This document shows positions 2,932-51,838 of a DNA stretch of 64,000 nucleotides, piece after piece. The stretch comes from Pseudomonadota bacterium (lineage in GTDB: Bacteria > Pseudomonadota > Gammaproteobacteria > Burkholderiales > JAJZUU01): NCBI GenBank assembly GCA_021848325.1, contig JAJZUU010000009.1, positions 1,580 to 65,579 on the forward strand, given 5' to 3'. A program made the translations under genes and the position numbers. Within the stretch, counting starts at the first letter, position 1. The number at the start of each line of letters is the position of its first letter. The notes under the pieces are model-generated. The model was not told the origin of the DNA, made no database searches, and saw only the letters and a program-made list of their open reading frames with translations.

Positions 2932-3119
2932 GGCGATAGGTATCCTGAGCAAAGATTGATTGAGAATTATTCTTATTATGGCAAAATTTTCACACACTTT
3001 GCAAGTAAAATTTGGATGTTTAGGTACGAAATGCAACTTACTGAATGTATGGCGAAAATAAAGCCGGCGGCGCGGCCGGAGGGCGACGCGCGCGGAACGT
3101 CCGCGGCAGTGGGCCGTAA

Positions 3120-31481: not shown

Positions 31482-31556
31482 GCGGGAATAGCTCAGTGGT
31501 AGAGCACAACCTTGCCAAGGTTGGGGTCGCGAGTTCGAGCCTCGTTTCCCGCTCCA
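31482..31556 (+). tRNA. glyW: tRNA-Gly (anticodon GCC)
   Basis: GCGGGAATAGCTCAGTGGTAGAGCACAACCTTGCCAAGGTTGGGGTCGCGAGTTCGAGCCTCGTTTCCCGCTCCA folds as a canonical cloverleaf. Confidence 0.95.
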
Positions 31557-31831: not shown

Positions 31832-31905
31832 GGCGGGGTGGCAGAGTGGTTATGCAGCGGCCTGCAAAGCCGTGGACGCCGGTTCGATTCCGACCCCCGC
31901 CTCCA
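31832..31905 (+). tRNA. cysT: tRNA-Cys (anticodon GCA)
   Basis: GGCGGGGTGGCAGAGTGGTTATGCAGCGGCCTGCAAAGCCGTGGACGCCGGTTCGATTCCGACCCCCGCCTCCA folds as a canonical cloverleaf. Confidence 0.95.
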
Positions 31906-31909
31906 TCCA

Positions 31910-31948
31910 GCCCGGATGGCGGAGCAGGGACACACAAGGGATTTCAAG
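31910..31948 (+). pseudogene. degenerate tRNA-Leu 5'-half-like fragment
   Basis: GCCCGGATGGCGGAGCAGG matches 18 of the first 19 nt of the tRNA-Leu 5' half at 32017, and about 29/39 positions overall without gaps. No matching 3' half follows. Confidence 0.45.
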
Positions 31949-32016
31949 ACCTCCAGATATATTCCGCAAGGCATTGTTTCGTAATTGACTTGTTTCTGAT
32001 CGGCAACATGAATCTT

Positions 32017-32055
32017 GCCCGGATGGCGGAACAGGTAGACGCTACGGACTTAAAA
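32017..32055 (+). pseudogene. leuZ: tRNA-Leu(UAA) 5' half (acceptor, D arm, anticodon 5' stem and loop), separated from its 3' half by the insertion
   Basis: GCCCGGATGGCGGAACAGGTAGACGCTACGGACTTAAAA. Joined to 47821-47868 it gives a perfect 87-nt class II tRNA. Confidence 0.9.
32047..32055. repeat. attL core (GACTTAAAA)
   Basis: Identical 9-mer at 47812-47820. Corresponds to the last 2 nt of the anticodon stem plus the 7-nt anticodon loop. Confidence 0.8.
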
Positions 32056-32137
32056 ACATCTTGTGGTGTAGTATTTTCAACGGTTAGAAGCACATTGCGC
32101 GTAAAAGTGCGTAATCCGTTGAAAAGGAGCCAACACC

Positions 32138-33256: not shown

Positions 33257-33336
33257 CGGTTTCAGGCAAAGCGGGCCGGCGCGGTGGGCAAACACCGGCC
33301 GGCCCTGACCGAAACGCAACTGCAAGGAGTTACGAA

Positions 33337-33762
33337 ATGGCTACCCAAGAGAATATCAAACCAGCGACCGAAGCCGCAGAGCGCGACGCACTCAACGAAG
33401 CCGCAGAGCGCGACGCACTCAACGAAGCAAGCATGGCACTCGGCCGGGCGTGGGGACTTGCTGAAACCCTATGTTTTCAAGCGGGCGAACGCCCCGACGA
33501 TTTCGACGTCGAGGGCGTCATGCGCGTGATTCACTCGCTGGTGGGCCAAGCGAAGGCGAAGGTAGGCGCTCGGGCCGTTGATCTGGAAATCGACGCCGCG
33601 CTGGCGGTTTGTTGTCTGGTCATGGTGGATTCCCAGGAAAGCGCCTATGACCCCGGCTCGTCGTCATCGTGGGCACTTGAGGCTGTACCGAGCGCTATTC
33701 AGCGCGCGAAGGATGCAGTCGACGCTGTGCCCTGGGGCCTCCCTCAACTGAAAGCCGCTTGA
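33337..33762 (+). CDS. hypothetical protein with an internal 9-aa duplication
   Basis: 141-aa ORF with RBS AAGGAG. No family recognised. Followed by a terminator. Confidence 0.55.
   Translation: MATQENIKPATEAAERDALNEAAERDALNEASMALGRAWGLAETLCFQAGERPDDFDVEGVMRVIHSLVGQAKAKVGARAVDLEIDAALAVCCLVMVDSQESAYDPGSSSSWALEAVPSAIQRAKDAVDAVPWGLPQLKAA
33370..33423. repeat. perfect 27-bp tandem duplication (2 copies plus 5 nt of a third)
   Basis: GAAGCCGCAGAGCGCGACGCACTCAAC x2, encoding EAAERDALN twice. Confidence 0.95.
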
Positions 33763-33767
33763 TTCCG

Positions 33768-33789
33768 GCCGCCTGCGGGCGGCTTTTTT
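33768..33789 (+). terminator. intrinsic terminator
   Basis: Stem GCCGCC/GGCGGC with loop TGCG, followed by a T6 run. Confidence 0.75.
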
Positions 33790-33830
33790 ATTCGATGACG
33801 TATAAATAACTTTGTGCCTGTTTGTGATGC

Positions 33831-33859
33831 TTGGCAATCGGTGGCGGTCAAGGTATAGT
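33831..33859 (+). promoter_or_regulatory. sigma-70-like promoter
   Basis: TTGGCA, 17-nt spacer, TATAGT. Confidence 0.6.
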
Positions 33860-33865
33860 CGCTGA

Positions 33866-34067
33866 CAGTATCTCGAAACGAAAACCGCGAAGCCAGACCG
33901 CAACGACTGGTGCAGTACGAGGCAACACCCCCGAGCGAAAGCTAAAGGTGGTGGTAACGGCCCCCAAGGAATGCACCGCCCTTGGAACCGATACCCCCTA
34001 GCCCCCGGCTAGGACAGGCGCTTAGAGATATAGACCGGAGCACTACATGCTGCCGGTCTTTTCATTT
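33866..34067 (+). ncRNA. candidate ~200-nt structured leader/small RNA ending in an intrinsic terminator
   Basis: Lies between promoter 33831-33859 and hairpin GACCGGAGCA...TGCTGCCGGTC plus TTTTCATTT (34033-34067). Internal hairpins CCAAGG/CCTTGG and CTAGCC/GGCTAG. No convincing ORF. Confidence 0.4.
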
Positions 34068-34102
34068 GTGGCGACCGGTAGCACCTCGCAGGAGAGTGCG
34101 CC

Positions 34103-34342
34103 ATGCAAACCACGAACACCCAAGAAGCATTTGAGTTAAGCGACCTTCGCGCCGTCGAAGCGCTCGCCGCCGAAAATCCCAAGTACCTGACTGTATCCAC
34201 GCTGCGCTGGCAGCTTCGCCACCGTGACACCAACGGCCTGGCCGCCGCGTGCGTGCGCGTCGGCAAACGCCTGCTGATTTCCAAGTCGCGTTATGAGCAC
34301 TGGCTGGCGACCCAAACCGAAGCGGCGCGGGGTGTGGCATGA
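34103..34342 (+). CDS. excisionase/AlpA-type helix-turn-helix DNA-binding protein
   Basis: 79 aa with RBS AGGAGA. HTH_17-like sequence LTVSTLRWQLRHRDTNGLAAACVRVGKRLLISKSRYEHWL. Confidence 0.7.
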   Translation: MQTTNTQEAFELSDLRAVEALAAENPKYLTVSTLRWQLRHRDTNGLAAACVRVGKRLLISKSRYEHWLATQTEAARGVA

Positions 34343-34620
34343 GCTACGCCGCCAACATCCCCCCGCAACTTGATTTCAGCAAGCGCGGCATGTGCGCCGC
34401 CCTCAACATGGCCGAGGACGAGTTCACCGACGCCTACCGTAACAAGGAAATCGCGCCCCCGGATAGCGTGCGCTTACGCGAGCCTAGGTGGTCAGTGATG
34501 GCCCTGGGGCAGGAAATCAAGAAACGCACCCCGGCGCATCTGGTGGGGCTGGAAGCCCTGAACTATCAGCTTGAAGCACTGGCTCGCGCCGAACGTGCAG
34601 AAGGGTGGCGACATGACTAA
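34339..34620 (+). CDS. hypothetical protein
   Basis: 93 aa. ATGA overlap with the upstream gene indicates translational coupling. Confidence 0.55.
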   Translation: MSYAANIPPQLDFSKRGMCAALNMAEDEFTDAYRNKEIAPPDSVRLREPRWSVMALGQEIKKRTPAHLVGLEALNYQLEALARAERAEGWRHD

Positions 34621-37081
34621 TGCAACCGCCCGTGCCATTGCGGCGCTACAAAAAGAAATGGCCTCAGGGGAAACTGAGGCCAGCAAAGAAAAAACCACTG
34701 TAAGCGAGAGTGTACCGAGTGCCAAAAATTTAGGCAACGGTCAGTTCGCCGAGCACGGCGCCGCTTTGCTTGCCAACGGCTATTTAATCATTCCAATCAA
34801 GCCGGGCCACAAGCGCCCGGCACTCGACAACTGGCAAACCGCACGACTTGGCGCCGCTGACCTGACCCGATACCCTAACCATGGCGTCGGTGTGCTGTGC
34901 GGGCAAGGTGCCCAGCCCATTGCCGCTATCGACGTGGATACTACGGACGGTGCATTGACTACCCGGTTCGTGGGTTGGTGCCAGGAACACCTCGGCGCCA
35001 CGTGTGAGCGCGTGGGCTTCGCGCCCAAGATCCTGCTCGCCTACCGGGCAGCGTCCGAAGGCTGGGGCAAGGCTACCGGCGCCTGGTTCGAGGACTTGGG
35101 CGGTGCGCGGCACCGGCTGGAAGTGCTGGGCAAGGGTCAGCAGTTCGTGGCCTACCATATCCACCCGGACACGGGCGAGCCCTACGAGTGGGTGGATTTC
35201 TTCGGCGGCCTCGATGCCATGCGGGCCGGCGACCTGCCCATCATCACCGAGGCCCAGGTCGAAGAAGCCCTGCAGGTGTTCGAGGCCATGGCCGAGGAAG
35301 CCGGGCTCGTGCGCGTGTCGGGCAGCAAGACCAAGGCTGGGGGCATGACCTCGGCGCCGGTCGACGACCCGCTCATGGCCTATGAGCCACCGGTCGGCAT
35401 TGACATGGGAGAGGCCCGGCGCCTTGTGTCCTACGTGGATAACGAGGACTACGACACCTGGCTGAAAGTCGGCATGTCGCTGCACCACGAGTTCGACGGC
35501 GACGTGGCCGCGCTGGATTTGTGGGATGAATGGTCGAGCACGGCAACGAACTACGCCAGCCGTGAGGACTTGGAGAAGCGGTGGGATAGCTTCGGCCGAT
35601 CGGGGCGCAACCCGACGACGGCGCGCTGGCTGCTCAAGGTAGCGGGCGAAGCAAAGAAGCCCGACCATGATGCTGGCCGATTAGACGCGGCACGCCGCGA
35701 ACACCAGAAGCAGGAAAACGAGCGCATTGGCAACGGCAACGGCCGTTACCCGACCGTCGAGGTTATCGACCTGAAAGCCGCATTGACCCGATTCGTTTTC
35801 ATGTCGGACGGTTCTCGCGTCGCCGACATCTTCAACCCGCACTACGATCTGGCCTTTTCCGACTGGTCGGCCACGTTCGCAGCCTCGAAGGAGCCGATAT
35901 GGGACGACGAGAAGCGGAAGGAGAAGCTGGTGGCTGTTCCGCTCTTGTGGCGCGCATCGAAGGAGCGCAAGACCGTGGTTTGCCGCACCTTCAAAGCAGG
36001 CGGTGCGCCGGTTCTCAACGATCCCAACGGGAAGCTGGCGCTGAACACCTGGCGCCCGTTTGATCGCACTGCGAACGTGCAGGACATGGCAGCGGCCGGG
36101 GTGGATCTGTTCCTGGATCACGTCGACCTGCTATTCGGGAAGGATGCCCCGCGTTTCCTCGACTGGCTGGCGCATATTGAGCAACGCCCCGGCGAACTCC
36201 CCCATACGGCGTGGCTGCACATTGCCAAGCACTTCGGCCTGGGCCGCAACTGGATGGAATCGGTACTCGCCCGCGTTTGGGCCGGCGCCGTGGCCGCCAA
36301 TCTTGACCTTGTTTCAGTGCTCAAGAAAGACGGCTACAACGGCCGGCTTTCTTGCAAGGTGCTGGCCGTGGTCGATGAAATTCGGGAAGGCGGCCGCGAC
36401 GCGCAGTGGGAGCACTCGGAGAAAATGAAGAGCATCATCACCGAGGAAACGCGGCAGATTAACCCGAAGTACGGGCGTCAGTCGGTAGAGTTCAATGCGT
36501 GCCGCTGGTTGATGTTCTCCAACCACTTGTCGGCCATCCCCCTAGAAGATGGCGACCGACGCATCGAGGTTGTCTATACCGAGGCCCGGCCACGGGGGGC
36601 AGATTACTACGCCAGGCTGTACTCCGTGCTCGACGATGCCATGTTCATCGCCGCCGTAGCGAAGTACCTGGGCGAGCGTGACATTGGCGCATTCAATCCG
36701 GGTGCCCACGCCGTCAATAGCGAATCGAAGAAGGCGGCAACCAAAGCGAGCCAAACCCCAATGGCAGCATGGTGCGAAATGCTGGTCGAGCACTGGCCCA
36801 GTGACCTGATTATGTCGCAGCACCTTTTCGACATCCTGGCGCGCGATGGTGCAGGCGGATCGCTCAACGCCGCACACCGACGAACCTTGGAGCAGCACGG
36901 CGTTGAAGCCCTGGGCAAGCCGTTGAAGGTGGAAGGCCGGCCGGTGCGCGTTTCAATTGTTCGCAACAAGGAACGGTGGAAACAGGCAGAACCTAACAAC
37001 CTGCGCGACGAGTTGGCGAAGGCCAATCCCGGATTGGACAGTGCCCGCGACTACCTGATGGAGTTTGCAGCGTGCGGGTAA
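34613..37081 (+). CDS. replication protein: bifunctional primase-polymerase N-terminal domain + PriCT-like + SF3/D5-type helicase-like C-terminal domain
   Basis: 822 aa. Prim-pol-like GYLIIPIKPGHKRP...GVGVLCG...IDVD, PriCT-like YDTWLKVGMSLHHEF and helicase-like LAVVDEI (Walker B). Start at ATG 34613 with RBS AAGGGTGG (34571 is an alternative). Confidence 0.8.
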   Translation: MTNATARAIAALQKEMASGETEASKEKTTVSESVPSAKNLGNGQFAEHGAALLANGYLIIPIKPGHKRPALDNWQTARLGAADLTRYPNHGVGVLCGQGAQPIAAIDVDTTDGALTTRFVGWCQEHLGATCERVGFAPKILLAYRAASEGWGKATGAWFEDLGGARHRLEVLGKGQQFVAYHIHPDTGEPYEWVDFFGGLDAMRAGDLPIITEAQVEEALQVFEAMAEEAGLVRVSGSKTKAGGMTSAPVDDPLMAYEPPVGIDMGEARRLVSYVDNEDYDTWLKVGMSLHHEFDGDVAALDLWDEWSSTATNYASREDLEKRWDSFGRSGRNPTTARWLLKVAGEAKKPDHDAGRLDAARREHQKQENERIGNGNGRYPTVEVIDLKAALTRFVFMSDGSRVADIFNPHYDLAFSDWSATFAASKEPIWDDEKRKEKLVAVPLLWRASKERKTVVCRTFKAGGAPVLNDPNGKLALNTWRPFDRTANVQDMAAAGVDLFLDHVDLLFGKDAPRFLDWLAHIEQRPGELPHTAWLHIAKHFGLGRNWMESVLARVWAGAVAANLDLVSVLKKDGYNGRLSCKVLAVVDEIREGGRDAQWEHSEKMKSIITEETRQINPKYGRQSVEFNACRWLMFSNHLSAIPLEDGDRRIEVVYTEARPRGADYYARLYSVLDDAMFIAAVAKYLGERDIGAFNPGAHAVNSESKKAATKASQTPMAAWCEMLVEHWPSDLIMSQHLFDILARDGAGGSLNAAHRRTLEQHGVEALGKPLKVEGRPVRVSIVRNKERWKQAEPNNLRDELAKANPGLDSARDYLMEFAACG

Positions 37082-37098
37082 TACCTTGCAGCGAACAC

Positions 37099-37261
37099 GT
37101 AACCGGCCGCCGATTGGTGGCCGTTTTTGTTTGGGCGGTTACGCTGGTTACGCTGGTTACGCTCAATATATAAACGTCAAACCATTCATTTTATTGATGG
37201 TTACTTTTTAGAAACGCCGTAACGAGCGTAACGAGCGTAACCGACCGCCGATTGGTGGCCG
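37099..37261. other. putative replication origin: inverted iteron triplets flanking an AT-rich core
   Basis: GGTTACGCT x3 (37137-37163), a 50-bp AT-rich stretch (37164-37213), then an inverted AGCGTAAC(C/G) x3 (37216-37242). Bracketed by a direct 25-bp repeat GTAACCG(G/A)CCGCCGATTGGTGGCCG (37099 and 37237). Confidence 0.65.
37104..37133 (+). terminator. intrinsic terminator after the replication gene
   Basis: Stem CGGCCGCC/GGTGGCCG (one G.U) with loop GATT, followed by TTTTTGTTTG. Confidence 0.65.
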
Positions 37262-37278
37262 AATTTCCGCGCAGTACG

Positions 37279-37520
37279 TGCGCGCGAGGCAACAAAAAAA
37301 ATTGACACCTGAAAAAGGCCCAAACTTCACGCATCGCGCGCGGGCATGCGCGTGTGGGGCTGGGCATCCGCACACCTGAAAAAGGGGCGGCAGCGCCTTG
37401 CTAGACGCATCGCGCGTGCGCATGCGCGCGAGGCAGACGTCCTAGGCCTCTAGACGATGGGGACCTAATCTCGCGCGTGCGCATGCGCGCGAGGCAGACA
37501 CCGTCCAGACACCTGAAAAA
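37279..37520. repeat. GC-rich repeat array / probable operator region
   Basis: 28-bp perfect repeat CGCGCGTGCGCATGCGCGCGAGGCAGAC at 37411-37438 and 37472-37499, with a related TGCGCGCGAGGCAAC at 37279. ACACCTGAAAAA at 37305, 37372 and 37509. ACGCATCGCGCG at 37329 and 37405. Confidence 0.85.
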
Positions 37521-37688
37521 ACGGCCGCAACGGATCAACTGACCGCTGGCAATCAAGCAACAGTGCGCCCTCAGCCGGCGTGTGCGTAATCCCGAGCGTA
37601 AAGGGCATGGTGCACGTACCTCGTAGGGGTGCCCGTACCTTTCTGTCTGACAAATACAGTCATCCCATGACCACCGGACAGAAACGAC

Positions 37689-37889
37689 ATGCCCAAGCTG
37701 ATAACCCTCGAAGAAGCTGCCGCCCGATGCGGCATTTCGCGCCGGACGGTGGATCGCTACGTCGAGCGCGGGCAGTTCGTGGCTCTCTATCAACTCCCTA
37801 CCGGCCACCTTCGCGTTGATGAGCACGACCTCAACGCTTGGCTGGCCGCATGCCGCACCGACAACCAACCGAAGGAAGCCACCCAATGA
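37689..37889 (+). CDS. excisionase/MerR-type helix-turn-helix DNA-binding protein
   Basis: 66 aa, LITLEEAAARCGISRRTVDRYVERGQF...LRVDEHDLNAWL. Confidence 0.7.
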   Translation: MPKLITLEEAAARCGISRRTVDRYVERGQFVALYQLPTGHLRVDEHDLNAWLAACRTDNQPKEATQ

Positions 37890-38782
37890 GAACCGCAGCC
37901 ATCGACAAGGAACTCGCCAAAGAGCACGAACAGCTTGGCGAGGCCCGAGCAGCAGCAGCCGAAGCCGCTGAGAAGCTGTCCACCGAACCCGGCAACAAGA
38001 AACATCGTTTGGCCGTGCTGGAAGCGCAGGCACGAGCCGATGAAATCAACGTGACCATCGAGGCCCTTAACCTGGCCCGCGAGCAGGCGGTCAAATTCGA
38101 TCAGTCCGAGGAAGGCCAGGCCACCCGCGCCAAGCGGGCGTCGATGGTGGCAACCGTGCGCGATGCCAATGCACAAATGGTTGCAGCAGCGGCCGCCGTC
38201 GACGAGGTGCTGGCCGCACTGCGCACCTGCGCCGTGCAATTCGCCGACGCTCGCTTGGCCGCTCAAAGTGCTAGTGCCGCCTATCTCGACCTGAACGAGA
38301 GCGACCTCGACGCCCGGATGCACGACTACCAAGCCCTGAACCACGAACCCGGCAACGTGGCGCACGCCTTGGCATTGACACTGCACGACATTGTTACTGC
38401 CACCGGACTGGATTGCAGCCACTTCCTCACGTTCAACCCCTACACGCTGACGCCCAACAGTGGCGTGGGCGGTGAATTCTTGCGAACCCTTGAACAAGGA
38501 GCACGGGCCAACACCCTGCGCGCTGTCACAACCCTGGCACATATCGAGGCAGTGCATACCGGCACCTATGTGCCGCCACCGCCCATGGAGCAGCCCAGAC
38601 CCAACCTGCACGCCGACCACTTCATCGCCGCGAACTTCAACGAACTGATGGAGCACGTTGCTGCAACCGGCGAAGAGCCAGCCCTCGACCCGGACGAAAC
38701 GCACACGATTGCAAAGGATTGGGACGAATACTTGGCTGCAACCTCGGGCCTCGAATCGCCCAAGGTGCTGCACCAGGAGTAA
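37886..38782 (+). CDS. hypothetical alanine-rich, predominantly helical protein (scaffold-like by composition only)
   Basis: 298 aa. ATGA overlap with the upstream HTH gene. N-terminal coiled-coil-like region. Confidence 0.6.
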   Translation: MRTAAIDKELAKEHEQLGEARAAAAEAAEKLSTEPGNKKHRLAVLEAQARADEINVTIEALNLAREQAVKFDQSEEGQATRAKRASMVATVRDANAQMVAAAAAVDEVLAALRTCAVQFADARLAAQSASAAYLDLNESDLDARMHDYQALNHEPGNVAHALALTLHDIVTATGLDCSHFLTFNPYTLTPNSGVGGEFLRTLEQGARANTLRAVTTLAHIEAVHTGTYVPPPPMEQPRPNLHADHFIAANFNELMEHVAATGEEPALDPDETHTIAKDWDEYLAATSGLESPKVLHQE

Positions 38783-38788
38783 CCAGCG

Positions 38789-38995
38789 ATGAATTACACC
38801 CCCGTCAATGTGCCGCTGCAAAGCCCCGAGCGCGTGGTCTATCCGCACGAGGTGACACCACCGCGTGAGTGTGAGGTCAGCAGGCCGAGCCCGACAGAGG
38901 CAGCGACATCCTGGTCGGGCTTCCACAAGCGGGGGTGCTATGAGCGAAGAAGCCAAGCGATACATCGTGCGCGAATACCTCGATCTTCACCCTGA
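38789..38995 (+). CDS. hypothetical small protein (uncertain)
   Basis: 68-aa ORF with a good RBS (AGGAG 9 nt upstream), but it overlaps the next ORF by 56 nt. Confidence 0.3.
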   Translation: MNYTPVNVPLQSPERVVYPHEVTPPRECEVSRPSPTEAATSWSGFHKRGCYERRSQAIHRARIPRSSP

Positions 38996-39122
38996 CAAAG
39001 AATTCCGGCGCGCGGTCTTTGCGTTGCTGCTTCTCGACAAACCTGAGCACCTAGACACGCTCTACGACATGGCCGTGCGCTTCGGCATGTGCGGCGAGAT
39101 TGTCGAGGGCGTTTTCATTTAA
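38940..39122 (+). CDS. hypothetical small protein
   Basis: 60 aa (MSEEAKRYIVREYLDLHPDKEF...) with RBS GGGGGTG. Confidence 0.45.
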   Translation: MSEEAKRYIVREYLDLHPDKEFRRAVFALLLLDKPEHLDTLYDMAVRFGMCGEIVEGVFI

Positions 39123-39134
39123 GGAGTCTTAACC

Positions 39135-39578
39135 ATGGCAATCATCGACGCAGCAACGCAGTTTTCCAACGCTCAAACCGTGACCGGTGCGAGCGCTGTC
39201 CTTTCCGCCAATACCCTTGATGCGCTACAGAACCGCGATATGGGCGGTGGTAAATCTTTTCAGGTGCTGTTTCAGGTCGGCACCGCATTTGCCGGCCTGA
39301 CGGCCCTCGAAATGCAGATCATCACGGCCGACGATGCCGGCCTGACCACGAACGTGAATGTGCTGGGCAGTACGGGTGCCATTCCAGTGGCTTCGCTGAC
39401 GGCGGCCGCCAGGTTCTACGCCAGCATCAACCCGCGCATCGGCAACAAGGGGCAGCGCTACATCGGCTGCCGCTACATCCCGACCGGCACCGGCACGGCT
39501 GGCACGATCAGCGCGCAAATCGGTGGCGACGTGGGCGACTTCAAGCCGGTTTATCCAACCGGCTATTCCGTGGCTTAA
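39135..39578 (+). CDS. Bbp16-like (phage capsid cement/decoration-type, jelly-roll) protein
   Basis: 147 aa with RBS AAGGAG. Pattern FSNAQTVTGASAVLSANTLD...RDMGGGKSFQVLFQV...ALEMQIITADD...RYIGCRYIPTGTGTAG resembles the Bbp16 family as I remember it. Not verified by search. Confidence 0.5.
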   Translation: MAIIDAATQFSNAQTVTGASAVLSANTLDALQNRDMGGGKSFQVLFQVGTAFAGLTALEMQIITADDAGLTTNVNVLGSTGAIPVASLTAAARFYASINPRIGNKGQRYIGCRYIPTGTGTAGTISAQIGGDVGDFKPVYPTGYSVA

Positions 39579-39589
39579 GGGGAACAATC

Positions 39590-40117
39590 ATGGACGTTGG
39601 AGGCGCAGGGATATTTTTACAGGCGGCCGGGGCCGTCAATTCGGCTATCGGCAGCTACTACAGCGCGAAGTCCCAGCAAAGCAGCCTGCGCTTCGCCGCA
39701 GACATCGCCGACATCAATGCGCGCATTTCCGAAATCGGGGCGCAATCTGAATTGATGAAGGGCGAGCGCGAGATTGGCGCCCTCACGATGCGTTACGGCC
39801 AGATGAAGTCCACGCAGCGCGCCTCACTCGCAGCAAACGGCGTGGATTTGGGCGAAGGCAGCGCGGCCGAGATCCAAGCCTCTACCGACATCCTCAAGGA
39901 AATCGACGCCAACACGCTGAACTCCAACGCTGTGCGCAGCGCCTGGGGCTATCGCACACAGGCGACCAACTACCAGAATGACGCCATCTTAAAGCGTGCC
40001 ACGGCCAGCACTATCGACCCACTTGGGGCGGGCCTCACGTCACTGCTGGGCAGCGCTGGCAGCGTGGCGAGCAGTTGGTACAACTACAACAAGGCGAGCG
40101 GCCAGCAGGTGCGGTGA
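39590..40117 (+). CDS. T7 gp14-like internal virion protein candidate
   Basis: 175 aa. Gly/Ala-rich hydrophobic N- and C-termini flank a long Q/A/S-rich helical region, with the size and composition of podovirus inner-core proteins. Confidence 0.45.
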   Translation: MDVGGAGIFLQAAGAVNSAIGSYYSAKSQQSSLRFAADIADINARISEIGAQSELMKGEREIGALTMRYGQMKSTQRASLAANGVDLGEGSAAEIQASTDILKEIDANTLNSNAVRSAWGYRTQATNYQNDAILKRATASTIDPLGAGLTSLLGSAGSVASSWYNYNKASGQQVR

Positions 40118-40629
40118 TGAGAACCATCGGGCTTTCTGCAAAAGGGAAGGTGGTAGGCGAATACGTGCCATCGGCAAAACTGACCTTTGCCCAGGTAGAG
40201 GAAATGCGCGCCCTGGCAACAGGCGGCCTCACATACACCGAAATTGGCGCCAGGTTTGGTGTTTCCAGATCGAGCGCGGCCAGGGCCATCAAGGGCGAAA
40301 CCTGGGCAGTTCCGGTAGCAAGGCTGGTGCAGCAGATCGAAACCGAGGACTTGGCCGCACTCACTTCTGGCGAGGGGCGGCTGCTGATTGCCAAAAAGGC
40401 CGGGGCGACTACCGGGTCAGTTGAACGAGCCATGAAGAAGACCGGCATTGCCTGGGATGGAAATATCAGGAAGCAGAAGCATTCCCATTGCAAGCAGGGG
40501 CACCCCCTGGAGGGTCAGAACCTGATTGTGAGGAAAAACGGCACCCAAGCCTGCCGAGAGTGCAGCCGGGAACGGGGGCGCACATTTGCACGGAGAAAGC
40601 GCGATGACGCTCGCCGTGGCCGTGAATGA
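40117..40629 (+). CDS. HTH DNA-binding protein with C-terminal Cys/His zinc-ribbon-like motif
   Basis: 170 aa. AKLTFAQVEEMRALATGGLTYTEIGARFGVSRSSAARAIKG, and HCKQGHPLEGQNLIVRKNGTQACRECSRER. Start overlaps the previous stop by 1 nt. Confidence 0.6.
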   Translation: MRTIGLSAKGKVVGEYVPSAKLTFAQVEEMRALATGGLTYTEIGARFGVSRSSAARAIKGETWAVPVARLVQQIETEDLAALTSGEGRLLIAKKAGATTGSVERAMKKTGIAWDGNIRKQKHSHCKQGHPLEGQNLIVRKNGTQACRECSRERGRTFARRKRDDARRGRE

Positions 40630-40834
40630 CGCCGGTTTGCGCATCGGTGAGGATCATCCGAACGCCAAGCTGACCGATGCCGAAGTGGAACGCATCCGCA
40701 GCCTGCACGAGGAAGGCATGGGCTACGAGGCTATCGCCGAAAAATACGAAGTAAGCAAGTGGTGCATCGGGCGTATTTGCCGATACGAACGCCGGGGGCA
40801 AACCACTGCACGCTGGAAAACAATCGAGGAGTAA
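40604..40834 (+). CDS. small HTH DNA-binding protein (paralogue of the N-domain of 40117..40629)
   Basis: 76 aa, HPNAKLTDAEVERIRSLHEEGMGYEAIAEKYEVSKWCIGRICRYERR. RBS GGAGA upstream of ATG 40604. Confidence 0.55.
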   Translation: MTLAVAVNDAGLRIGEDHPNAKLTDAEVERIRSLHEEGMGYEAIAEKYEVSKWCIGRICRYERRGQTTARWKTIEE

Positions 40835-40839
40835 AACCC

Positions 40840-43449
40840 ATGCCAACCGTACCCCGTTTCGACGGCCCGCAAGTAACGCCCAACACCTTGCCCCAGGTGC
40901 GAGTCGATACGCCTGAGTTCCACAACTACGCCGCCGACCAGGCGCAGCAATTAGGGCGGGCCATGAGCAACTTCGGCGGCCACATGACCGAGATTGCCAC
41001 CGACGCGCAAAACGAAGCCAACAAGACTGTGGCCAAGGACATCGACACGCAAGCCACGGCGGCTATCGGTGACGTGCTGTACAACCCGCAGAGCGGTTAC
41101 ATGGTCAAGGAAGGCAAGGACGTGGTCGCCGGCTATGGCGATGCAACCGAAGCCCTCAAGCAAGTGCGCCAGAAGGCCCTCGATGGGGTGCAGAACACGG
41201 CAGTGCGCCAAATGGTCGAGCCGGTCATCAATGCCCGGATGCAGAATGCCCTCGAAACGATCAACCGGCATTCAGGCACCGAAACTCGCCGCTATCAGGT
41301 GCAGACCTCGGATTCGCGGGCCATCGTCACGTTGCAGGACGCTGCCTTCAACTACGACGATGACAAGCGCTTCAACGAAGCCCTGGCCGTCACGCGGGAT
41401 GAAACCAACAACCTAGCCAAGCTGCAAGGCTGGGACGAAGCCACGGCACGCTTGCAGGCGCAGAAATACGCCGACACCGGCAACCGCATGCGCTACGAAG
41501 CCTGGGCAATCAAAGACCCGGTGGCCGCCTTCGCCCACTTCCAGCAAAACGCCGAGGGAATAAGCCCGCTGGTGCGCGACAACATCGGCCGCCAGCTTTT
41601 CCAGCATGCTGCCCCGGTGCTCGCCACCATTGTGAATCAGACAGGCGGGCCAGGCGTGGTGCCCTCTGCACCGGGCGACATGACAGCGCCGCGCGGCATC
41701 CGCAACAACAACCCTGGCAACGTCATGCGCGGCAGCGACACGTGGCAGGGTGAGGTGCAAGGCAACGACCCGCGCTATGCCAGCTTTGCGACGCCCGAGG
41801 CCGGCATACGGGCCATGGGCAAGACCCTCATCAACTACCAGGATAAGCACGGCATCAACACCGTGGAAGGCGTCGTGTCGCGCTGGGCGCCAGCCACCGA
41901 GAACAACACGGCCGCCTACGTCGCCACCGTGGCGAAGGAAATGGGCGTCAAGCCCGATGCAAACCTCGATTTGCACGACCCCGCAACGCTCAACAAGCTG
42001 ACCCGCGCTATGATTCGCGTCGAGAACGGCAAGCAGCCGTACACGGACGATCAGATCGCGCTGGGTCTGGCTGCCGCCACCGGCAACACCCCACTGCCAA
42101 CGGCGGCCAGTGCCAAGCGCGACCCCAATGCCTCTACCGGCATCGGCCTGGTTGACGGCCTGCCCGCCGACTGGAAGCTGCATGTGTTGCAGCTTGCGCG
42201 CAGCCAGGCGCATCAAGACATGGCCGAGGCCCGCGAATCGCTGCGCGGCCGGGTGCAGGATGCCAGCGCCGAGTATATGGCGAATGGCTTTGCATCCAAC
42301 CCGCCGAACGAGGCCGAATTTATCCGCGCTTATGGACAGGCCGAGGGCGCCGGCCGGTACCGTGATTTCCAAAGCGTCGCCACGCTGGGTCAAACCCTGC
42401 AACAGGTACGCACGTTGCCGAACGCCGCGCTCAACGACTTGTTGAAATCCTCGAAGCCCACACCGGGCGACGGCTTCGCAGTGCGGCAGCACAACTTCGA
42501 GATTCTTTCGGGGGCTATCGACACCGTGGTGAAGGCTCGCACCCAAGACCCGGTGGCCTACGCACTGACCGGCAAGAGCTACGGCCTTCGCCCGATTCAG
42601 CGCTTCGATGATCCACAGGGCACGGCCCAGGAGCTTGCCCGTCGAGCGGCCGCAGCGCCGCAAATGTCGGCCGACTACAACACGCCGCCGCGCCTCTTGT
42701 CCAACGCCGAGGCCAGCGCACTATCGGCCACGCTCAAGGCCAGTCCGGTGGAAGGGCAAAAGCAACTGCTGGGCACCATTGCAAAAAGCATCAACGACAT
42801 GGGCCTGCTCAAGGCGACCATGCAGTCCATTGCGCCAGATTCGCCCACGGTAGCCGTGGCCGGCATCTATCAGGCGCGCGGCCTGCGCACGACGGAAAAC
42901 CGCGACGTGGCCGACCTCATCCTGCGCGGGCAGGCCATCCTTACCCCGAACAAAAAGGAGGACGGCAGCGGCCACATGGGCGGCGCGTCGCTCATCAAGA
43001 TGCCCGAGGAAAAGCTGCTGCTATCCGACTGGACAAGCGCGACCGGCGACGCTTTCAAAGGCCGCGAGCAGGCCGCCGACCTGTTCATGCAAACCGCCAA
43101 GGCCATCTATGCGGCCCGCAGCGCCGAGGAAGGCGACTACTCGGGCGTGATCGACTCGAAGCGCTGGAAGGCCGCCATCAACCTGGCAACGGGCGGCATC
43201 GAGAGCCACAACGGCAGCAAGATCGTGATGCCCTACGGCGTGCCCTATGACAAGTTCCAGAATGCGCTGCAGGGCCAGGTCGACCGCATCGTGAAGGACG
43301 GCGGCGCACTAAACACCTCGACGCGCGAAATGATGCGTCTGCCACTGGAAAACGTCGGCGACGGCCGCTATCTGTTCCGGCGAGGCACCGGCTATCTGGT
43401 GGGCAAGGATGGCCGCCCGGTGGTGGTCGATTTGAACGGGGGCCGCTGA
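40840..43449 (+). CDS. large virion-associated (internal/ejection-type) protein candidate with GIRNNNPGN motif domain
   Basis: 869 aa with RBS GAGGAG. N-terminus MPTVPRFDGPQV... and central PRGIRNNNPGNVMRGSDTWQGE...YASFATPEAGIRAM, both recalled from phage structural proteins. Confidence 0.55.
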   Translation: MPTVPRFDGPQVTPNTLPQVRVDTPEFHNYAADQAQQLGRAMSNFGGHMTEIATDAQNEANKTVAKDIDTQATAAIGDVLYNPQSGYMVKEGKDVVAGYGDATEALKQVRQKALDGVQNTAVRQMVEPVINARMQNALETINRHSGTETRRYQVQTSDSRAIVTLQDAAFNYDDDKRFNEALAVTRDETNNLAKLQGWDEATARLQAQKYADTGNRMRYEAWAIKDPVAAFAHFQQNAEGISPLVRDNIGRQLFQHAAPVLATIVNQTGGPGVVPSAPGDMTAPRGIRNNNPGNVMRGSDTWQGEVQGNDPRYASFATPEAGIRAMGKTLINYQDKHGINTVEGVVSRWAPATENNTAAYVATVAKEMGVKPDANLDLHDPATLNKLTRAMIRVENGKQPYTDDQIALGLAAATGNTPLPTAASAKRDPNASTGIGLVDGLPADWKLHVLQLARSQAHQDMAEARESLRGRVQDASAEYMANGFASNPPNEAEFIRAYGQAEGAGRYRDFQSVATLGQTLQQVRTLPNAALNDLLKSSKPTPGDGFAVRQHNFEILSGAIDTVVKARTQDPVAYALTGKSYGLRPIQRFDDPQGTAQELARRAAAAPQMSADYNTPPRLLSNAEASALSATLKASPVEGQKQLLGTIAKSINDMGLLKATMQSIAPDSPTVAVAGIYQARGLRTTENRDVADLILRGQAILTPNKKEDGSGHMGGASLIKMPEEKLLLSDWTSATGDAFKGREQAADLFMQTAKAIYAARSAEEGDYSGVIDSKRWKAAINLATGGIESHNGSKIVMPYGVPYDKFQNALQGQVDRIVKDGGALNTSTREMMRLPLENVGDGRYLFRRGTGYLVGKDGRPVVVDLNGGR

Positions 43450-44729
43450 TGAGCTTCGACCTTTTCCCGAATGAGCAAGGGGCCGCGCTGCTGAATGCGG
43501 CGCGCCATCCTTCCACCACGCCCGAGCCCGGCGCCTTCGACAACTTCTTCAGCGGCGCCGGGCAATACACCATGCGCAGCCTGGCCGAAGCAGGCCGGGC
43601 CGTGTCCCTGGCCGGTGCTGTTGTGCCCATGGCAATCGACAAGATGACTGAGGGCGACAATTTCAGCGGCAAGAGCCTGACCGACCGCTACTTTGAAACC
43701 CACGACGAGGTGTTCAACAACGCCGTCGACTACTGGACGCCGAAGCCCGGCGAGGTGGGCGCAGCCGGCCAGATTACTGGGCAGCTTGCCGGGGGCATCT
43801 TGCAGGCTGTTGTGCATCCGGCCTTGTTGGTCGGCACCGCCGCGCTGTCGCCGGCCGAGGACTTGGTGCGCGAGGGCGTGGATGCGAGCACGGCCACCAA
43901 GGTGGGCGTCATCCAGGGCGCGGGCGCCGCCATCGGCTTGAAAATGCCGTTTCTCGGGCAGACGCTCGCCACGCGCGTGCTGTCTGGCGCGGGCGGCAAC
44001 CTGTTACAGGGCACGGCAGGCGCGGCCGCATCGTCGGGCGTGCTCAAGGCCGAGGGCTACGACCAGCAGGCCGAGCGATTCAACCCGTGGGATATGCGCG
44101 CCCGCATACTCGACACGATGCTTGGGGCCGCTTTCGGCGGCCTGGCGCACATCGGTGCGAAAGGCGAAGCCAAGGCGCCCAAGCTGACCCCGACCGACGA
44201 GGCCGCGCTGTTGGTGGCGAATCAGGCGCGGCATATCGAGGACGTGACCCCGCAGGGCCGGCCGGCGACCGATGCCGACGCAACGATGCACGCCGATGCG
44301 ATGCGCCAGGCCGTCGAGCAGGTGCTGCGCGGCGAGCCGGTCACTATCGACGGCCTGGTCAAGGACATGCACATGGTGCCCGACGAGGCACTGACACGGC
44401 AGCGCACCGAAGTGACCGACGAGGCCCAGCGCATCGCGGCCCTGGAAGCACCCATCGAGGCCCCCATCCTGCCCAAGATCGAGCCCGGCGCGCCCGTGGC
44501 TGATGCCATCCCGGCCGAGCACAACCCGGCGAGCCTCAAGGCACGGCAGGCTGTTGTGGATCGCCCCGACCTGACCATTCCGACCAACCGCACCGACGCG
44601 GACGGCAACCCCATCACCCTGCGCGCCGCCGACGCGCTGGCCCTGGCTGATGCCGATGTGGCGCACGCCCAGGCTACCGCCGCCAGCGTGTTCAAAACGG
44701 CAGCCCATTGCCTTCTAGGAGCCCTGTAA
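43449..44729 (+). CDS. hypothetical Gly/Ala-rich protein with hydrophobic segments (ejection-protein-like)
   Basis: 426 aa. Start overlaps the previous stop. Contains GAAGQITGQLAGGILQAVVHPALLVGTAAL and GVIQGAGAAIGLKMPFLG stretches. Confidence 0.5.
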   Translation: MSFDLFPNEQGAALLNAARHPSTTPEPGAFDNFFSGAGQYTMRSLAEAGRAVSLAGAVVPMAIDKMTEGDNFSGKSLTDRYFETHDEVFNNAVDYWTPKPGEVGAAGQITGQLAGGILQAVVHPALLVGTAALSPAEDLVREGVDASTATKVGVIQGAGAAIGLKMPFLGQTLATRVLSGAGGNLLQGTAGAAASSGVLKAEGYDQQAERFNPWDMRARILDTMLGAAFGGLAHIGAKGEAKAPKLTPTDEAALLVANQARHIEDVTPQGRPATDADATMHADAMRQAVEQVLRGEPVTIDGLVKDMHMVPDEALTRQRTEVTDEAQRIAALEAPIEAPILPKIEPGAPVADAIPAEHNPASLKARQAVVDRPDLTIPTNRTDADGNPITLRAADALALADADVAHAQATAASVFKTAAHCLLGAL

Positions 44730-47258
44730 ATGGCCGACCCTTTTCGCTGTATTGCCGCGCTCAACAAGGCCGCAGGCAAGGAACTGAACCCGGACGAAGC
44801 CCTTGAGGTTTTCGACCGCATCCAGCGCACGGCGCGCGACTTGGCAGCCGGCCGCATCCAACCCGAGGGCGGGGCGAATCTTTCCAGCCCGGAAGGAATC
44901 ATGCAGCACGCTGCCGAACTTGCGGCCAAGGAGTTGATCCACGACAAAATCCGGCAGCAGCACAACACGCACCTGCGCATTGCCATCCTGGGGGAGCGCA
45001 AGGCCGAGGTCGAAGCAATGAAGGGTGGGGGCATCGGCGACGTGGATGCAGTGCGTCGCCTCATCGCAAACGACCCGGACGGCCGCGCGGATCGCTTCTC
45101 GCTCGAAGCCCGCGTGCACGGCGTTTCCAACCTGCTGAAATCGCGCATTCAGGACACGTGGGCGGCCCTGGGCAACGACTTCCTGGGCTTCATCCAGCAG
45201 CACGACAAAATCCGCGACCTCATCACCGAAATGAAGGGCCAGGACAGCGGCAATGCGCTGGCGAAGAAGGGCGCGGAAGCCTGGGCAAAGGCCGCCGAGG
45301 AATCACGCGCATGGTTCAACGAGAAGGGCGGCGAAATCGGCCACCTCGACGACTGGGGCTTCCCCCAGCACCACAGCCAGGAGCACGTCGCCAAGGCCGG
45401 CGTGGATGCCTGGGTGGCCGATGTATATCCAGCGCTCAAGCTGGACAAGTACGTCGACCTTGCAGGCAATCGCATGACCGAAACCCAAATCAAGGAACTG
45501 CTCAAAAATGCCTGGTGGTCAATTGCCACCAACGGCGCCAACAAGATCGAGCCCGGCAAGGCGCGCGGCCACGGCGCCCGCGCGAACCGCCACGCCGAAG
45601 AGCGCCAGATCCATTTCAAGGATGCCGACGCGGTGCTCGCCTATTGGGCCAAGTACGGGGAAAAGACCTTTCCCGACATTCTGGTCGGCCACCTTGAACA
45701 AATGGCAAAGGACATCGGCTTCATCGAGCATTTCGGACCGAACCCGGACGGCGCCTATCGGGTGCTGCGCGACGAAGCCGAGCAGGCCGCGAAAATGTCA
45801 GACCCGGCATCGCTCGACAAGATCGACAAGGAACTGGCGCGCCTCGACAACCTCTACGACTACGCGGCCGGGCGCGCCAAACCCGTGGCGAACCGTGCAG
45901 TGGCGGGCGTGTTCGACGCGCTGCGCAACCTCAATTCAGCCGGCAAGCTGGGCAGCGCATTTTGGGCCTCGTTCTACGGCGACAAGGTCATGCTCGAAGC
46001 CATGGGCCGCGTCAATAAGCTGCCCATGTGGCAAAGCTGGTACAACGAGGTGCGCTTGCTCAACCCGTTCAACGGTGCCGAGCGCCGCCAGTTGCAGCGG
46101 CAAACCCTCATGCTCGATTACATGAAGTCGGCCATGTACCGCTTCGGCGACGACCTGGGCCGCTCATCCTGGACGGGCAAAATGTCGAACGCCGTCATGA
46201 AGCTGTCGGGCATGTCGGCAATCAACGAGTGGCGGCGCGGTGCCTTCGGCCTCACGATGATGGATAGCATCGGCCACGAGGTGAGCACAAAGACCTGGGC
46301 CGAAGTCGGCCAGCAGGACATCCACCTGCTCAAATCGTTCGGCCTCACCGAGGCGGATTGGAATATCTGGAAGCTGGCCCAGCTTGAGGACTACGGCCAC
46401 GGCAACAACACCATGCTGACCCCGGAGGCCATCGCCAAGATTCCCGACGAGGCCCTGGCGCAGATTGGCATAGAGAACCCGGCGCAGGCCCGGCGCGAGG
46501 CCGTGGTCAAGTACCTGGGCGCGCTGCATTCCGAATCGCTCAACGCCGTGATCGAGCCCGGATGGAAAGAGCGCGCCAGGATGGTGGGCGGCTTGCAGCG
46601 CGGCAATCTGCGCGACGAAATCACGCGCAGCTTCTGGCAGTTCAAGGCGTTCCCGATTACACAATTCGAGCGCCTTCGGGACATCGGCCTCTCGCGGCCG
46701 AACGCGGGCGGCAAGGCCCAGTTCATCGGCGCGGTGCTGCTCATGCAAACCATGGCCGGCGCCATGATGCTGCAAACGCAATCGCTGCTATCAGGGGAAG
46801 ATCCCCGCCCAATGGATGATTGGAAATTTTGGCTTGCCGCTTTCATCAAGGGCGGCAGCCTGGGTATCTACGGCGACTTCCTCTACTCGCAGAGTGGCAC
46901 GACGCGCTACGGCAGCGGCCCGCTGGAAGTGCTGGCCGGCCCGACCATCGGGTCGGCGGCCGATGCGGTCACGGCACTGGTGCAGGCGGGTAACGCCGTT
47001 GCAGCCGGCAAGGATACGCACCTGGGCGCCAAGCTGCTGAACATCGCCAAGGGCTACATCCCCGGTCAGAACCTTTGGTACACCAGGGCGGCCACCGACC
47101 ACATCATCTTCCAGAATGCGCAGGAAGCGCTCTCGCCGGGCTACCTGGCGAACATGCGGGCCAATTCGGTGCGGCAGTTCAAACAGGACTGGTGGTGGGC
47201 GCCGGGTGAATTTACGCCGGATCGCGCGCCCGACATGGCGAACGCGCTAGGGAGGTGA
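44730..47258 (+). CDS. large hypothetical virion-associated protein candidate
   Basis: 842 aa. Start immediately follows the previous stop. C-terminal hydrophobic segments (FIGAVLLMQTMAGAMMLQ, FWLAAFIKGGSLGIYGDFLY). No family recognised. Confidence 0.5.
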   Translation: MADPFRCIAALNKAAGKELNPDEALEVFDRIQRTARDLAAGRIQPEGGANLSSPEGIMQHAAELAAKELIHDKIRQQHNTHLRIAILGERKAEVEAMKGGGIGDVDAVRRLIANDPDGRADRFSLEARVHGVSNLLKSRIQDTWAALGNDFLGFIQQHDKIRDLITEMKGQDSGNALAKKGAEAWAKAAEESRAWFNEKGGEIGHLDDWGFPQHHSQEHVAKAGVDAWVADVYPALKLDKYVDLAGNRMTETQIKELLKNAWWSIATNGANKIEPGKARGHGARANRHAEERQIHFKDADAVLAYWAKYGEKTFPDILVGHLEQMAKDIGFIEHFGPNPDGAYRVLRDEAEQAAKMSDPASLDKIDKELARLDNLYDYAAGRAKPVANRAVAGVFDALRNLNSAGKLGSAFWASFYGDKVMLEAMGRVNKLPMWQSWYNEVRLLNPFNGAERRQLQRQTLMLDYMKSAMYRFGDDLGRSSWTGKMSNAVMKLSGMSAINEWRRGAFGLTMMDSIGHEVSTKTWAEVGQQDIHLLKSFGLTEADWNIWKLAQLEDYGHGNNTMLTPEAIAKIPDEALAQIGIENPAQARREAVVKYLGALHSESLNAVIEPGWKERARMVGGLQRGNLRDEITRSFWQFKAFPITQFERLRDIGLSRPNAGGKAQFIGAVLLMQTMAGAMMLQTQSLLSGEDPRPMDDWKFWLAAFIKGGSLGIYGDFLYSQSGTTRYGSGPLEVLAGPTIGSAADAVTALVQAGNAVAAGKDTHLGAKLLNIAKGYIPGQNLWYTRAATDHIIFQNAQEALSPGYLANMRANSVRQFKQDWWWAPGEFTPDRAPDMANALGR

Positions 47259-47347
47259 GCGGCGCGGCTACGAGGTCAGACACTAGCCGCTTCTCAGGCC
47301 GGGGTGACACTGCTCGCCCGGCCGCCGCTTTGAAATTGTAGCCTTGT

Positions 47348-47645
47348 TGGTGCCTGGGACGGGAATCGAACCCGTATAGCTTTCGCCGAGGGATTTTCGT
47401 CACACTACGGCTTTCGCCGCCAGCCTTCGCCGTTCGTGCGCTGGACTATGCCTTCACCATGGCGCTGCGCGCTGTAGGTGCCCCCCGTCTAGTCTCTACA
47501 CCTTCCCCTTGCGAGGCTTGGCTCGGCGTTGCCTCGGCCCGAAGGTCAGGGGTTTCACCGAATTTGAGGGGATTCACGCGGGCGCTTTCGCTCCCCGGTG
47601 CTCAATGTTTAAGTCCCTTGTGTCTACCAATTTCACCACCCAGGC
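47348..47645 (-). tRNA. tRNA-Leu (anticodon UAA) gene interrupted by a group I intron
   Basis: Exons 47645-47611 and 47397-47348 join to an 85-nt class II cloverleaf with all four stems Watson-Crick paired and loop CTTAAAA. Confidence 0.88.
47398..47610 (-). ncRNA. group I intron (bacterial tRNA-intron type, IC3-like), 213 nt, no ORF
   Basis: P1 CTTAA/TTGAG places a U.G wobble at the 5' splice site, and the intron ends in G. Core strings TCAAATTCGGTGAAACC, GGCAACGCCGAGCCAAGC and GAAGGTGTAGAGACTAGACGG are present. Confidence 0.85.
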
Positions 47646-47657
47646 GGCGAAACGCGT

Positions 47658-47686
47658 ATTTTACCGGAGAGTGCGCAGCGCGTAAA
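47658..47686 (-). promoter_or_regulatory. sigma-70-like promoter for the element-borne tRNA-Leu
   Basis: On the minus strand: TTTACG, 17-nt spacer, TAAAAT. The -10 ends about 12 nt upstream of the tRNA 5' end. Confidence 0.55.
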
Positions 47687-47811
47687 ATGCGCGTAACACA
47701 CAGCACAATTCACCACAAAACAACACGCCAGGATGACACCCCAACACAACAAAAGCCCCCGTTTTCATTGCGTTACGTTGCGTTGCATTGAGTGGGTTTG
47801 CGTTGGGCCTT

Positions 47812-47820
47812 GACTTAAAA
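47812..47820. repeat. attR core (GACTTAAAA)
   Basis: Identical to 32047-32055. Confidence 0.8.
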
Positions 47821-47868
47821 TCCGTTGACCGAAAGGTCGTACCGGTTCGATTCCGGTTCCGGGCACCA
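47812..47868 (+). pseudogene. leuZ: tRNA-Leu(UAA) 3' part (anticodon loop, 3' stem, variable arm, T arm, acceptor, CCA)
   Basis: GACTTAAAATCCGTTGACCGAAAGGTCGTACCGGTTCGATTCCGGTTCCGGGCACCA. Complements the 5' half at 32017-32055. Confidence 0.9.
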
Positions 47869-51738: not shown

Positions 51739-51838
51739 GGCGGGCCTCCCCGCATTGCAAGGTGGTGAACCTGGTCAGGTCCGGAAGGAAGCAGCCACAG
51801 CTACTTATTGCAAGTGCCGGGGGTTGGGCTCGCCACCC
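51739..51838 (+). ncRNA. ffs: signal recognition particle RNA (4.5S, small bacterial type)
   Basis: Domain IV core CCTGGTCAGGTCCGGAAGGAAGCAGCC. Ends GGCGGGCC...GGCTCGCCACCC can pair. Conserved position upstream of dnaX. Boundaries accurate to about 5 nt. Confidence 0.85.

Follow-up and report, generated by a model that had tools for sequence, protein, structure and literature searches.

What becomes of a decoding function when a mobile element splits a host tRNA gene and rebuilds it at neither of its ends? This question is raised by a 64-kb window of contig JAJZUU010000009.1 (the whole stretch of DNA analysed here), which comes from an uncultured betaproteobacterium whose UvrB is ~85% identical to Sulfuricellaceae UvrB. 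Within it, an insertion of 15,765 bp interrupts the host tRNA-Leu(UAA) gene, leuZ, in its anticodon loop and carries, close to one of its ends, a complete tRNA-Leu(UAA) gene of its own that is itself interrupted by a group I intron. The initial annotation of the window had proposed that this copy makes good the tRNA lost through the insertion. Sequence comparison strongly supports that idea, and we consider it probable that the element makes up for the lost tRNA-Leu(UAA) in this way; what does not stand is its novelty as a principle, which has been published as tRNA-dependent lysogeny (PMC10865867). What is new is the host phylum, the intron and the position of the replacement gene next to attP.

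The structure of the two junctions defines the damage to the host gene. At attL, the 39-nt 5' half of the host tRNA-Leu(UAA) gene (32017-32055, plus strand) breaks off after the anticodon loop (...ACGGACTTAAAA) and ends in the 9-bp core GACTTAAAA (32047-32055), and the sequence past this core (ACATCTTGTGG...) is unable to complete the anticodon stem. At attR (47812-47868, plus strand), the same core GACTTAAAA (47812-47820) is followed by the host 3' half up to the CCA, the whole reading GACTTAAAATCCGT...GGGCACCA. The 9-bp core, and nothing longer, is common to attL and attR, so that the tRNA is rebuilt at neither end; in line with this, default ARAGORN and Rfam called no tRNA at either junction in the window. 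The attP junction reads ...GGGCCTTGACTTAAAAACATCTTG..., and since attP has no tRNA 3' part, the host gene is split by integration and not restored. When the two halves are joined they give an 87-nt canonical tRNA-Leu(UAA).

A look-up of the neighbouring aminotransferase protein yielded both an empty-site contig from the same host (L275) and further assemblies covering the occupied junctions. In L275, pgsA, tRNA-Gly, tRNA-Cys, an intact tRNA-Leu(UAA) and the aminotransferase gene are contiguous, the element body that lies between the cores in the window (32056-47811) is missing, and the intact tRNA-Leu(UAA) is identical to the two window halves joined, which shows that 15.77 kb were inserted precisely into the anticodon loop and that the 9-bp core was duplicated. 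Identical occupied junctions recur in at least five independent assemblies and therefore do not represent an assembly artefact. The site is polymorphic in this host. Across the loci compared there is a natural series made up of an empty site, an occupied site and a relic (described below). In the window, the cluster that holds the target begins with pgsA (30867-31442), followed by tRNA-Gly(GCC) (31482-31556, plus strand; Rfam tRNA 68 bits) and tRNA-Cys(GCA) (31832-31905, plus strand; Rfam tRNA 61 bits), both called by ARAGORN. A degenerate tRNA-Leu-like 5' fragment (GCCCGGATGGCGGAGCAGGGACACACAAGGGATTTCAAGACC) lies at 31910-31953, 5 nt past tRNA-Cys, with the genuine leuZ following 107 nt on; it also occurs in the empty-site contig L275 and is therefore older than the insertion.

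The element-borne gene lies 166 bp inside attR on the opposite strand, as the initial annotation had placed it: it occupies 47348-47645 on the minus strand, with its 5' end 166 bp from the attR core, and consists of exon 1 (47645-47611), a 213-nt intron (47610-47398) and exon 2 (47397-47348), with A73 and the CCA end encoded. It was detected with intron-aware ARAGORN (-i) and with Rfam used at an E-value threshold; default ARAGORN, and Rfam at the gathering score, missed it in the window. Because default tRNA finders miss intron-containing genes of this kind, such lysogens would appear to lack tRNA-Leu(UAA). The gene is the only tRNA carried by the element, and its anticodon is exactly that of the gene destroyed. 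Removal of the intron would leave an 85-nt product that is predicted to fold into a normal class II cloverleaf for tRNA-Leu(UAA), with A73 and CCA. Comparison of the host and element tRNAs bore out the earlier view that the latter is not a simple duplicate of the target, since the acceptor, D, anticodon-stem and variable arms all differ, as does the T arm. Several other calls made by ARAGORN -i were rejected: a 'tRNA-Asn with intron' in L055 is a false positive that is really a tRNA-Ser(UGA), and calls in L054, L062, L206, L207 and L220 were likewise dropped as false positives.

A promoter scan recovered the promoter-like sequence that had been annotated upstream of this gene (TTTACG-17-TAAAAT, 47686-47658, minus strand), which aims at the element tRNA, together with an overlapping promoter-like sequence on the plus strand (TTTACC-17-TAAAAT, 47660-47688), which aims at attR; 0.2 sites were expected against the two found. 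The -10 of the promoter-like sequence is kept in two relatives of the element, L057 and L036, and the -35 spacing is lost in L036.

The intron is a group I intron of the IC3 class, located between U34 and A35. Its splice junctions read CUU/AAACAUUGAG...GACG/AAAA, with a G before the 3' splice site and a P1 U.G wobble at the 5' splice site (CUU/AA…UUGAG), and the IC3-type core motif GGUGUAGAGACUAGACGG is present. The Rfam model Intron_gpI (RF00028) matches over its whole length with 37.2 bits (E = 8e-8), against a gathering score of 50. An alignment was built from the window gene, two close relatives and 20 more distantly related tRNA-Leu(UAA) genes with introns. The consensus of these 23 sequences comprises 75 pairs, which correspond to the tRNA stems plus P1-P9, and compensatory changes are seen in 45 of the 75; none of the 23 sequences departs from the U.G pair at the 5' splice site. 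Paired cells make up 98.3%, versus 35-41% in slid controls, and the covariation score is 0.531, versus 0.06-0.08 in slid controls and 0.18 in shuffles, none of the 500 shuffles scoring as high. The window gene itself forms 72 of the 75 consensus pairs. The intron belongs to a structured family in which covariation is strong.

The arrangement of a split host tRNA beside an intron-containing replacement was found in at least six other host backgrounds. At the integrase end, proteins 85-97% identical to the integrase of the window adjoin split tRNA-Leu(UAA) 5' halves in Magnetospirillum aberrantis (L027), in a metagenome contig (L028) and in L289, and these three 5' halves stem from different tRNA-Leu(UAA) genes. 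At the opposite end, the intron tRNA, a ~170-bp attP arm, the core and a host 3' half follow one another in L036 (part of the same contig as L289), in a Dechloromonas metagenome-assembled genome (L057), in L281 and in L284, with host sequences that differ between them; a further locus, L286, carries the intron tRNA and the arm and then reaches the contig end. In all members that split leuZ, the intron tRNA adjoins attP. Three relatives, L038, L039 and L055, share structural genes with the element (their 842-aa protein is 75-85% identical) and sit beside an intact tRNA-Ser, and in these no tRNA of their own was found; another relative, L034, likewise has no tRNA of its own and none at its end. 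In L028 (6700-6790), the element directly follows the 3' end of a tRNA-Gly fragment and genes like those of integrative and conjugative elements (ParA, AlpA, DUF2857), and two mobile elements stand in tandem within this tRNA cluster.

The relic is represented by L285 (788-1220; Ga0208938_1000227), in which the intron tRNA is intact and the tRNA plus its promoter region is 91% identical to the window. In this locus the attP arm is shorter, the core has changed by mutation to GATTTAAGT, and decay of the host 3' half has left its T stem broken. The element body was not found within 790 nt, and an IS3-like gene starts at the edge of the locus. From its sequence, L285 looks like a relic of the right end of an element, in which the tRNA is the sole part that has stayed intact.

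A search of IMG/VR with the integrase returned only two prophage contigs, both cut at the integrase, and an IMG/VR profile search with the 842-aa protein gave no additional members with this integrase. Annotated phage records searched with the region gave short matches to other IC3 introns only. A 17-nt junction pattern (GGACTTAAAYAWTGAGC) matched 24 IMG/VR loci, all of which were chance matches in ribosome-binding-site/ATG contexts.

Taken together, these observations suggest the following sequence of events. Recombination by the tyrosine integrase would take place between GACTTAAAA, the minimal core of attP, and the anticodon loop of leuZ, and integration would split this host gene with no restoration, the split itself being directly visible in the window. 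The complete element-borne tRNA-Leu(UAA) gene, 166 bp from the core and with a promoter-like site of its own, would serve as the replacement, and self-splicing would rid its transcript of the 213-nt IC3 intron, leaving a normal tRNA-Leu(UAA). The gene and its intron architecture are observed; that the tRNA is transcribed, spliced and charged, and that the lysogen depends on it for UUA decoding, is what we infer. Such dependence would entail selection for keeping at least the tRNA. Indirect support for a requirement comes from the UUA codons found in host open reading frames, from the tRNA kept in L285 and from the location of the tRNA-free relatives at intact tRNA-Ser sites. Compensation is supported because the empty site in L275 pins down the insertion, because the arrangement recurs, because the relatives at tRNA-Ser sites are free of tRNAs, and because the relic L285 retains the tRNA.

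Several points weigh against this interpretation. The host genome was covered only as the 64-kb window and fragments, so that leuZ may not be its sole tRNA-Leu(UAA) gene, and expression and splicing of the element tRNA are predicted from its sequence. The promoter call is a consensus match whose -35 spacing is not kept in L036, and the intron scores 37 bits in Rfam, under the family gathering score of 50. Moreover, capsid and terminase genes are missing, so that strict 'lysogeny' of the element is not established.

How does this arrangement relate to known systems? One known class of canonical tRNA-targeting integrative elements crosses over within the 7-nt anticodon loop of a tRNA gene. The attP of such an element holds the whole tRNA 3' part, and an intact gene is restored at one junction. 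The element described here resembles them in its anticodon-loop crossover and in having a tyrosine integrase beside the junction; it differs in that its junctions have no more than 9 bp in common and the host gene is lost. With the catalogued Leu.3Ug IC3 introns it has in common the CUU/AAAA insertion site (U34/A35), the P1 U.G pair, the terminal G and the core GGUGUAGAGACUAGACGG, whereas, unlike in those known introns, the gene lies on a mobile element and replaces a destroyed intron-less host gene.

The closest parallel is the tRNA-dependent lysogeny of mycobacteriophages, described for Fionnbharth and other K4 and L cluster phages (Guerrero-Bustamante and Hatfull, mBio 2024, PMC10865867). 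There, a core of ~10 bp in the anticodon loop blocks the reconstruction of an essential single-copy tRNA, and a phage-encoded tRNA that shares its anticodon has been proven experimentally to be needed for survival of the lysogen (PMC10865867). Both systems use a tyrosine integrase, an attB in the anticodon loop of a host tRNA and a short core, do not rebuild the gene, and carry a tRNA of the same anticodon. Unlike the phages of that study, which infect Actinobacteria and target Lys(UUU), the present elements are found in Beta- and Alphaproteobacteria and target Leu(UAA); here the replacement tRNA holds a group I intron, lies 166 bp from the attP core and belongs to a 15.8-kb unit without capsid or terminase; and the need for the tRNA for viability, demonstrated there, is predicted here. 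Replacement tRNAs have also been noted bioinformatically for prophage-related sequences of Sinorhizobium meliloti (PMC11476347, PMC12429752), and one in prophage Lj965 of Lactobacillus johnsonii is cited in PMC10865867. In these cases too, on bioinformatic evidence, a tRNA gene is inactivated by an integrated element that supplies an isoacceptor in its place; the integrases and elements differ from those studied here, and no introns are reported, the word 'intron' occurring in neither PMC11476347 nor PMC12429752. A link between an intron-containing tRNA-Leu and the replacement of an integrase-destroyed tRNA was not met in the literature searched. With the present elements, tRNA-dependent lysogeny, for which the experimental proof comes from actinobacteriophages only, would extend to Beta- and Alphaproteobacteria, and two fields would be connected, that of tRNA-targeting integrases and that of self-splicing tRNA introns. 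This linkage yields a testable idea, namely that an attB-like sequence is shielded by the intron at the level of DNA.

A reading without compensation would make the element tRNA an ordinary phage accessory, serving codon supplementation or the evasion of anticodon nucleases, with another gene decoding UUA and no dependence of the host on the element. Phage tRNAs are common and several roles have been proposed for them (PMC10264068), and the host's tRNA-Leu(UAA) copy number is visible only within the 64-kb window and fragments. We nevertheless regard such a purely accessory role as very unlikely, given that the element carries a single tRNA whose anticodon exactly matches the destroyed gene, that this tRNA is kept next to attP in the members that split leuZ and is missing from the relatives at tRNA-Ser sites, and that the relic L285 keeps it while the host half decays. 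In addition, the element uses UUA much like its host (1.6 per 1000 codons, versus ~1.2 in the host open reading frames of the window), which makes codon supplementation unlikely.

If compensation is accepted as the main explanation, the presence of the intron still has to be accounted for. One reading is that it acts as a shield: by splitting the attB-like anticodon stem-loop, it would prevent the element's own integrase, or that of a superinfecting relative, from recombining the replacement gene. An intron-less replacement gene would hold the full 9-bp core, and recombination of attP with the replacement gene would invert or destroy that gene. The integrase family tolerates very different anticodon stems (the attB stems are ACGGA, CCGGA, GGCGA, GCGGA and AGAGA), so that sequence differences by themselves would give an intron-less copy no protection. 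In L036/L289, 56 of the central 57 nt of the spliced element tRNA match the host attB, and in the DNA of L036 the likeness to attB stops at the splice site, leaving the intron alone to distinguish the two. The intron is also present in all complete members seen (the window, L036, L057, L281, L284, L285 and L286). Against this stand the mycobacteriophage systems, which function with intron-less replacement tRNAs (PMC10865867), the frequency with which phage tRNA arrays that lack a related integrase include intron-interrupted tRNA-Leu(UAA) genes of this type, and the exon-intron junction of the window gene, GACTTAAAC, which, as the initial annotation had pointed out, retains 8 of the 9 positions of the core. 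On balance, we view a shielding role as doubtful. The alternative is that the intron is a neutral passenger, the gene having been drawn from a phage pool in which the intron form is common, with compensation operating despite the intron. At least 44 intron-containing tRNA-Leu(UAA) genes were found among the 120 IMG/VR contigs listed, mostly in tRNA arrays; their identity to the window gene is 70-75% and their structure is the same; and Leu.3Ug introns have already been catalogued in Proteobacteria (10.1101/2020.01.27.920355). As the intron-bearing gene is common in phages without such an integrase, the intron may be inherited baggage. This explanation leaves unexplained why every member keeps the intron, including L036 with its host-like exons; even so, it fits all the data, is compatible with compensation as the main explanation, and is the one towards which we lean, at somewhat better than even chances.

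The phage pool was surveyed by scanning IMG/VR with the IC3 core motif GGTGTAGAGACTAGACGG, which listed at least 120 contigs (including L081-L185). Among these matches, the 44 intron-containing tRNA-Leu(UAA) genes lie mostly inside phage tRNA arrays, and an integrase related to that of the element was found on none of their contigs. Other intron-containing tRNAs among the matches listed were called as Met/Ile(CAU), Ser, Lys, Thr and others. A group of eight (L099 at 2742-3013, L123, L130, L138, L139, L152, L173 and L179) has a UAA anticodon and no long variable arm (…GGCAAGAGACTT/AAAATCTCTCAAGCGGTGGTTCGAATCC…), a class I shape that implies that leucine identity may be lacking. On a 90,490-nt IMG/VR contig (L122, 3211-3522), an unannotated IC3 intron lies in a gene called tRNA-Lys(UUU) by ARAGORN -i. 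In a 2014 review, every phage intron then known was located in a protein-coding gene (PMC3984707), and we found no description of abundant group I introns in phage tRNA genes in the literature searched.

A chimeric element tRNA was observed in L036 (12628-12932, compared with the host halves at L289 126-164 and L036 13100-13161). Its anticodon stem and 20-nt variable arm are host-type (56/57), and its acceptor and T arms are element-type, a mosaic that points to gene conversion involving the element tRNA and the two parts of the split host gene.

Intron tRNAs of the same lineage also occur as lone chromosomal genes, in L280, L282/L283, L287 and L288. These stand-alone genes adjoin a DUF6806 gene and a small conserved open reading frame, and a DUF6806 gene also neighbours the split host tRNA in L036; they are oriented like the L036 element tRNA and not like the host gene. 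P4-type integrases (Arm-DNA-bind_3, Phage_int_M) lie at the 3' end of the intron tRNA in L283 (4709-6388) and L280 (1-927), which identifies the intron-containing tRNA as an attachment site for other islands. From these sequences, element-borne copies could become the resident gene. A simple in-situ replacement of leuZ by the intron tRNAs of L287 and L288 is not borne out, as their other flank is without tRNA-Gly, unlike that of the L036 host (L289). In a combined scenario, the intron would be kept as concealment from the element's own, rather promiscuous integrase, and the elements, by making hosts dependent on the gene, would carry intron-containing tRNA-Leu(UAA) alleles into bacterial chromosomes and establish them there. 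Hints of this scenario come from the relic L285, from the lone tRNAs adjoining DUF6806 genes and from the host-like exon core of the L036 element tRNA; we regard it as improbable. If true, the installation of such alleles would represent a spread of group I introns that needs neither a homing endonuclease nor reverse splicing.

What kind of element carries the tRNA? Its tyrosine integrase (32138-33256, plus strand; PF00589 1.6e-26; phrog_1 4e-54) starts 83 bp inside attL. Pfam and PHROGs further identify a prim-pol/PriCT-2 primase, a Bbp16-like protein, a T7 gp14-like protein and three large virion-type proteins, and across the family the structural set is of the internal-virion type, podovirus-like in the window, with Bbp16, a gp14-like protein and proteins of ~870, 426 and 842 aa. 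Searches of the element's proteins against Pfam and PHROGs revealed no capsid, portal or terminase. In all likelihood the insertion is a podovirus-related element that integrates site-specifically. Its compact layout recurs in L027, L028, L034 and L036, and the size of family members is consistently ~15-18 kb (the window, these four, and the IMG/VR contigs L029 and L030 at 18.0 and 15.8 kb); in the full-size relatives L001 and L002, a terminase follows the 842-aa gene. Since the compact layout is kept across several hosts, the element resembles a satellite more than a decayed prophage, and it is possibly a phage satellite equipped with ejection proteins of its own.

The non-coding stretch behind the primase gene (37098-37532) is rich in repeats: there are three copies of GGTTACGCT and one in inverted form, a direct repeat of 29 nt without mismatch stands at 37410 and 37471, and further repeats are 137-138 nt apart. 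By its sequence, this stretch looks like a replication origin or a regulatory region.

Repeats are also found in both attP arms. The motif GCGCGTAAAAGTGCGTAATCC (32097-32118, plus strand) has related copies at 47653-47700 and 47770-47806, and also in L027, L036, L057 and L281; in the same three intervals of the window, GCGCGTAAAA and TGCGTTA/TGCGTAA motifs are repeated. We propose these repeats as candidate arm-type integrase sites. One repeat pair overlaps the -35 region of the tRNA promoter-like sequence and the opposite-strand promoter-like site that faces attP/int, an overlap that may couple expression of the tRNA or of int to the integration state. The attL flank (GACTTAAAAACAT) resembles the exon-intron junction (GACTTAAACAT), but this likeness is not kept in L027 or L036 and was taken as chance. 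Beyond attR, the window contains a bacterial small signal recognition particle RNA at 51739-51837 (Rfam, 82.5 bits), an ordinary host gene.

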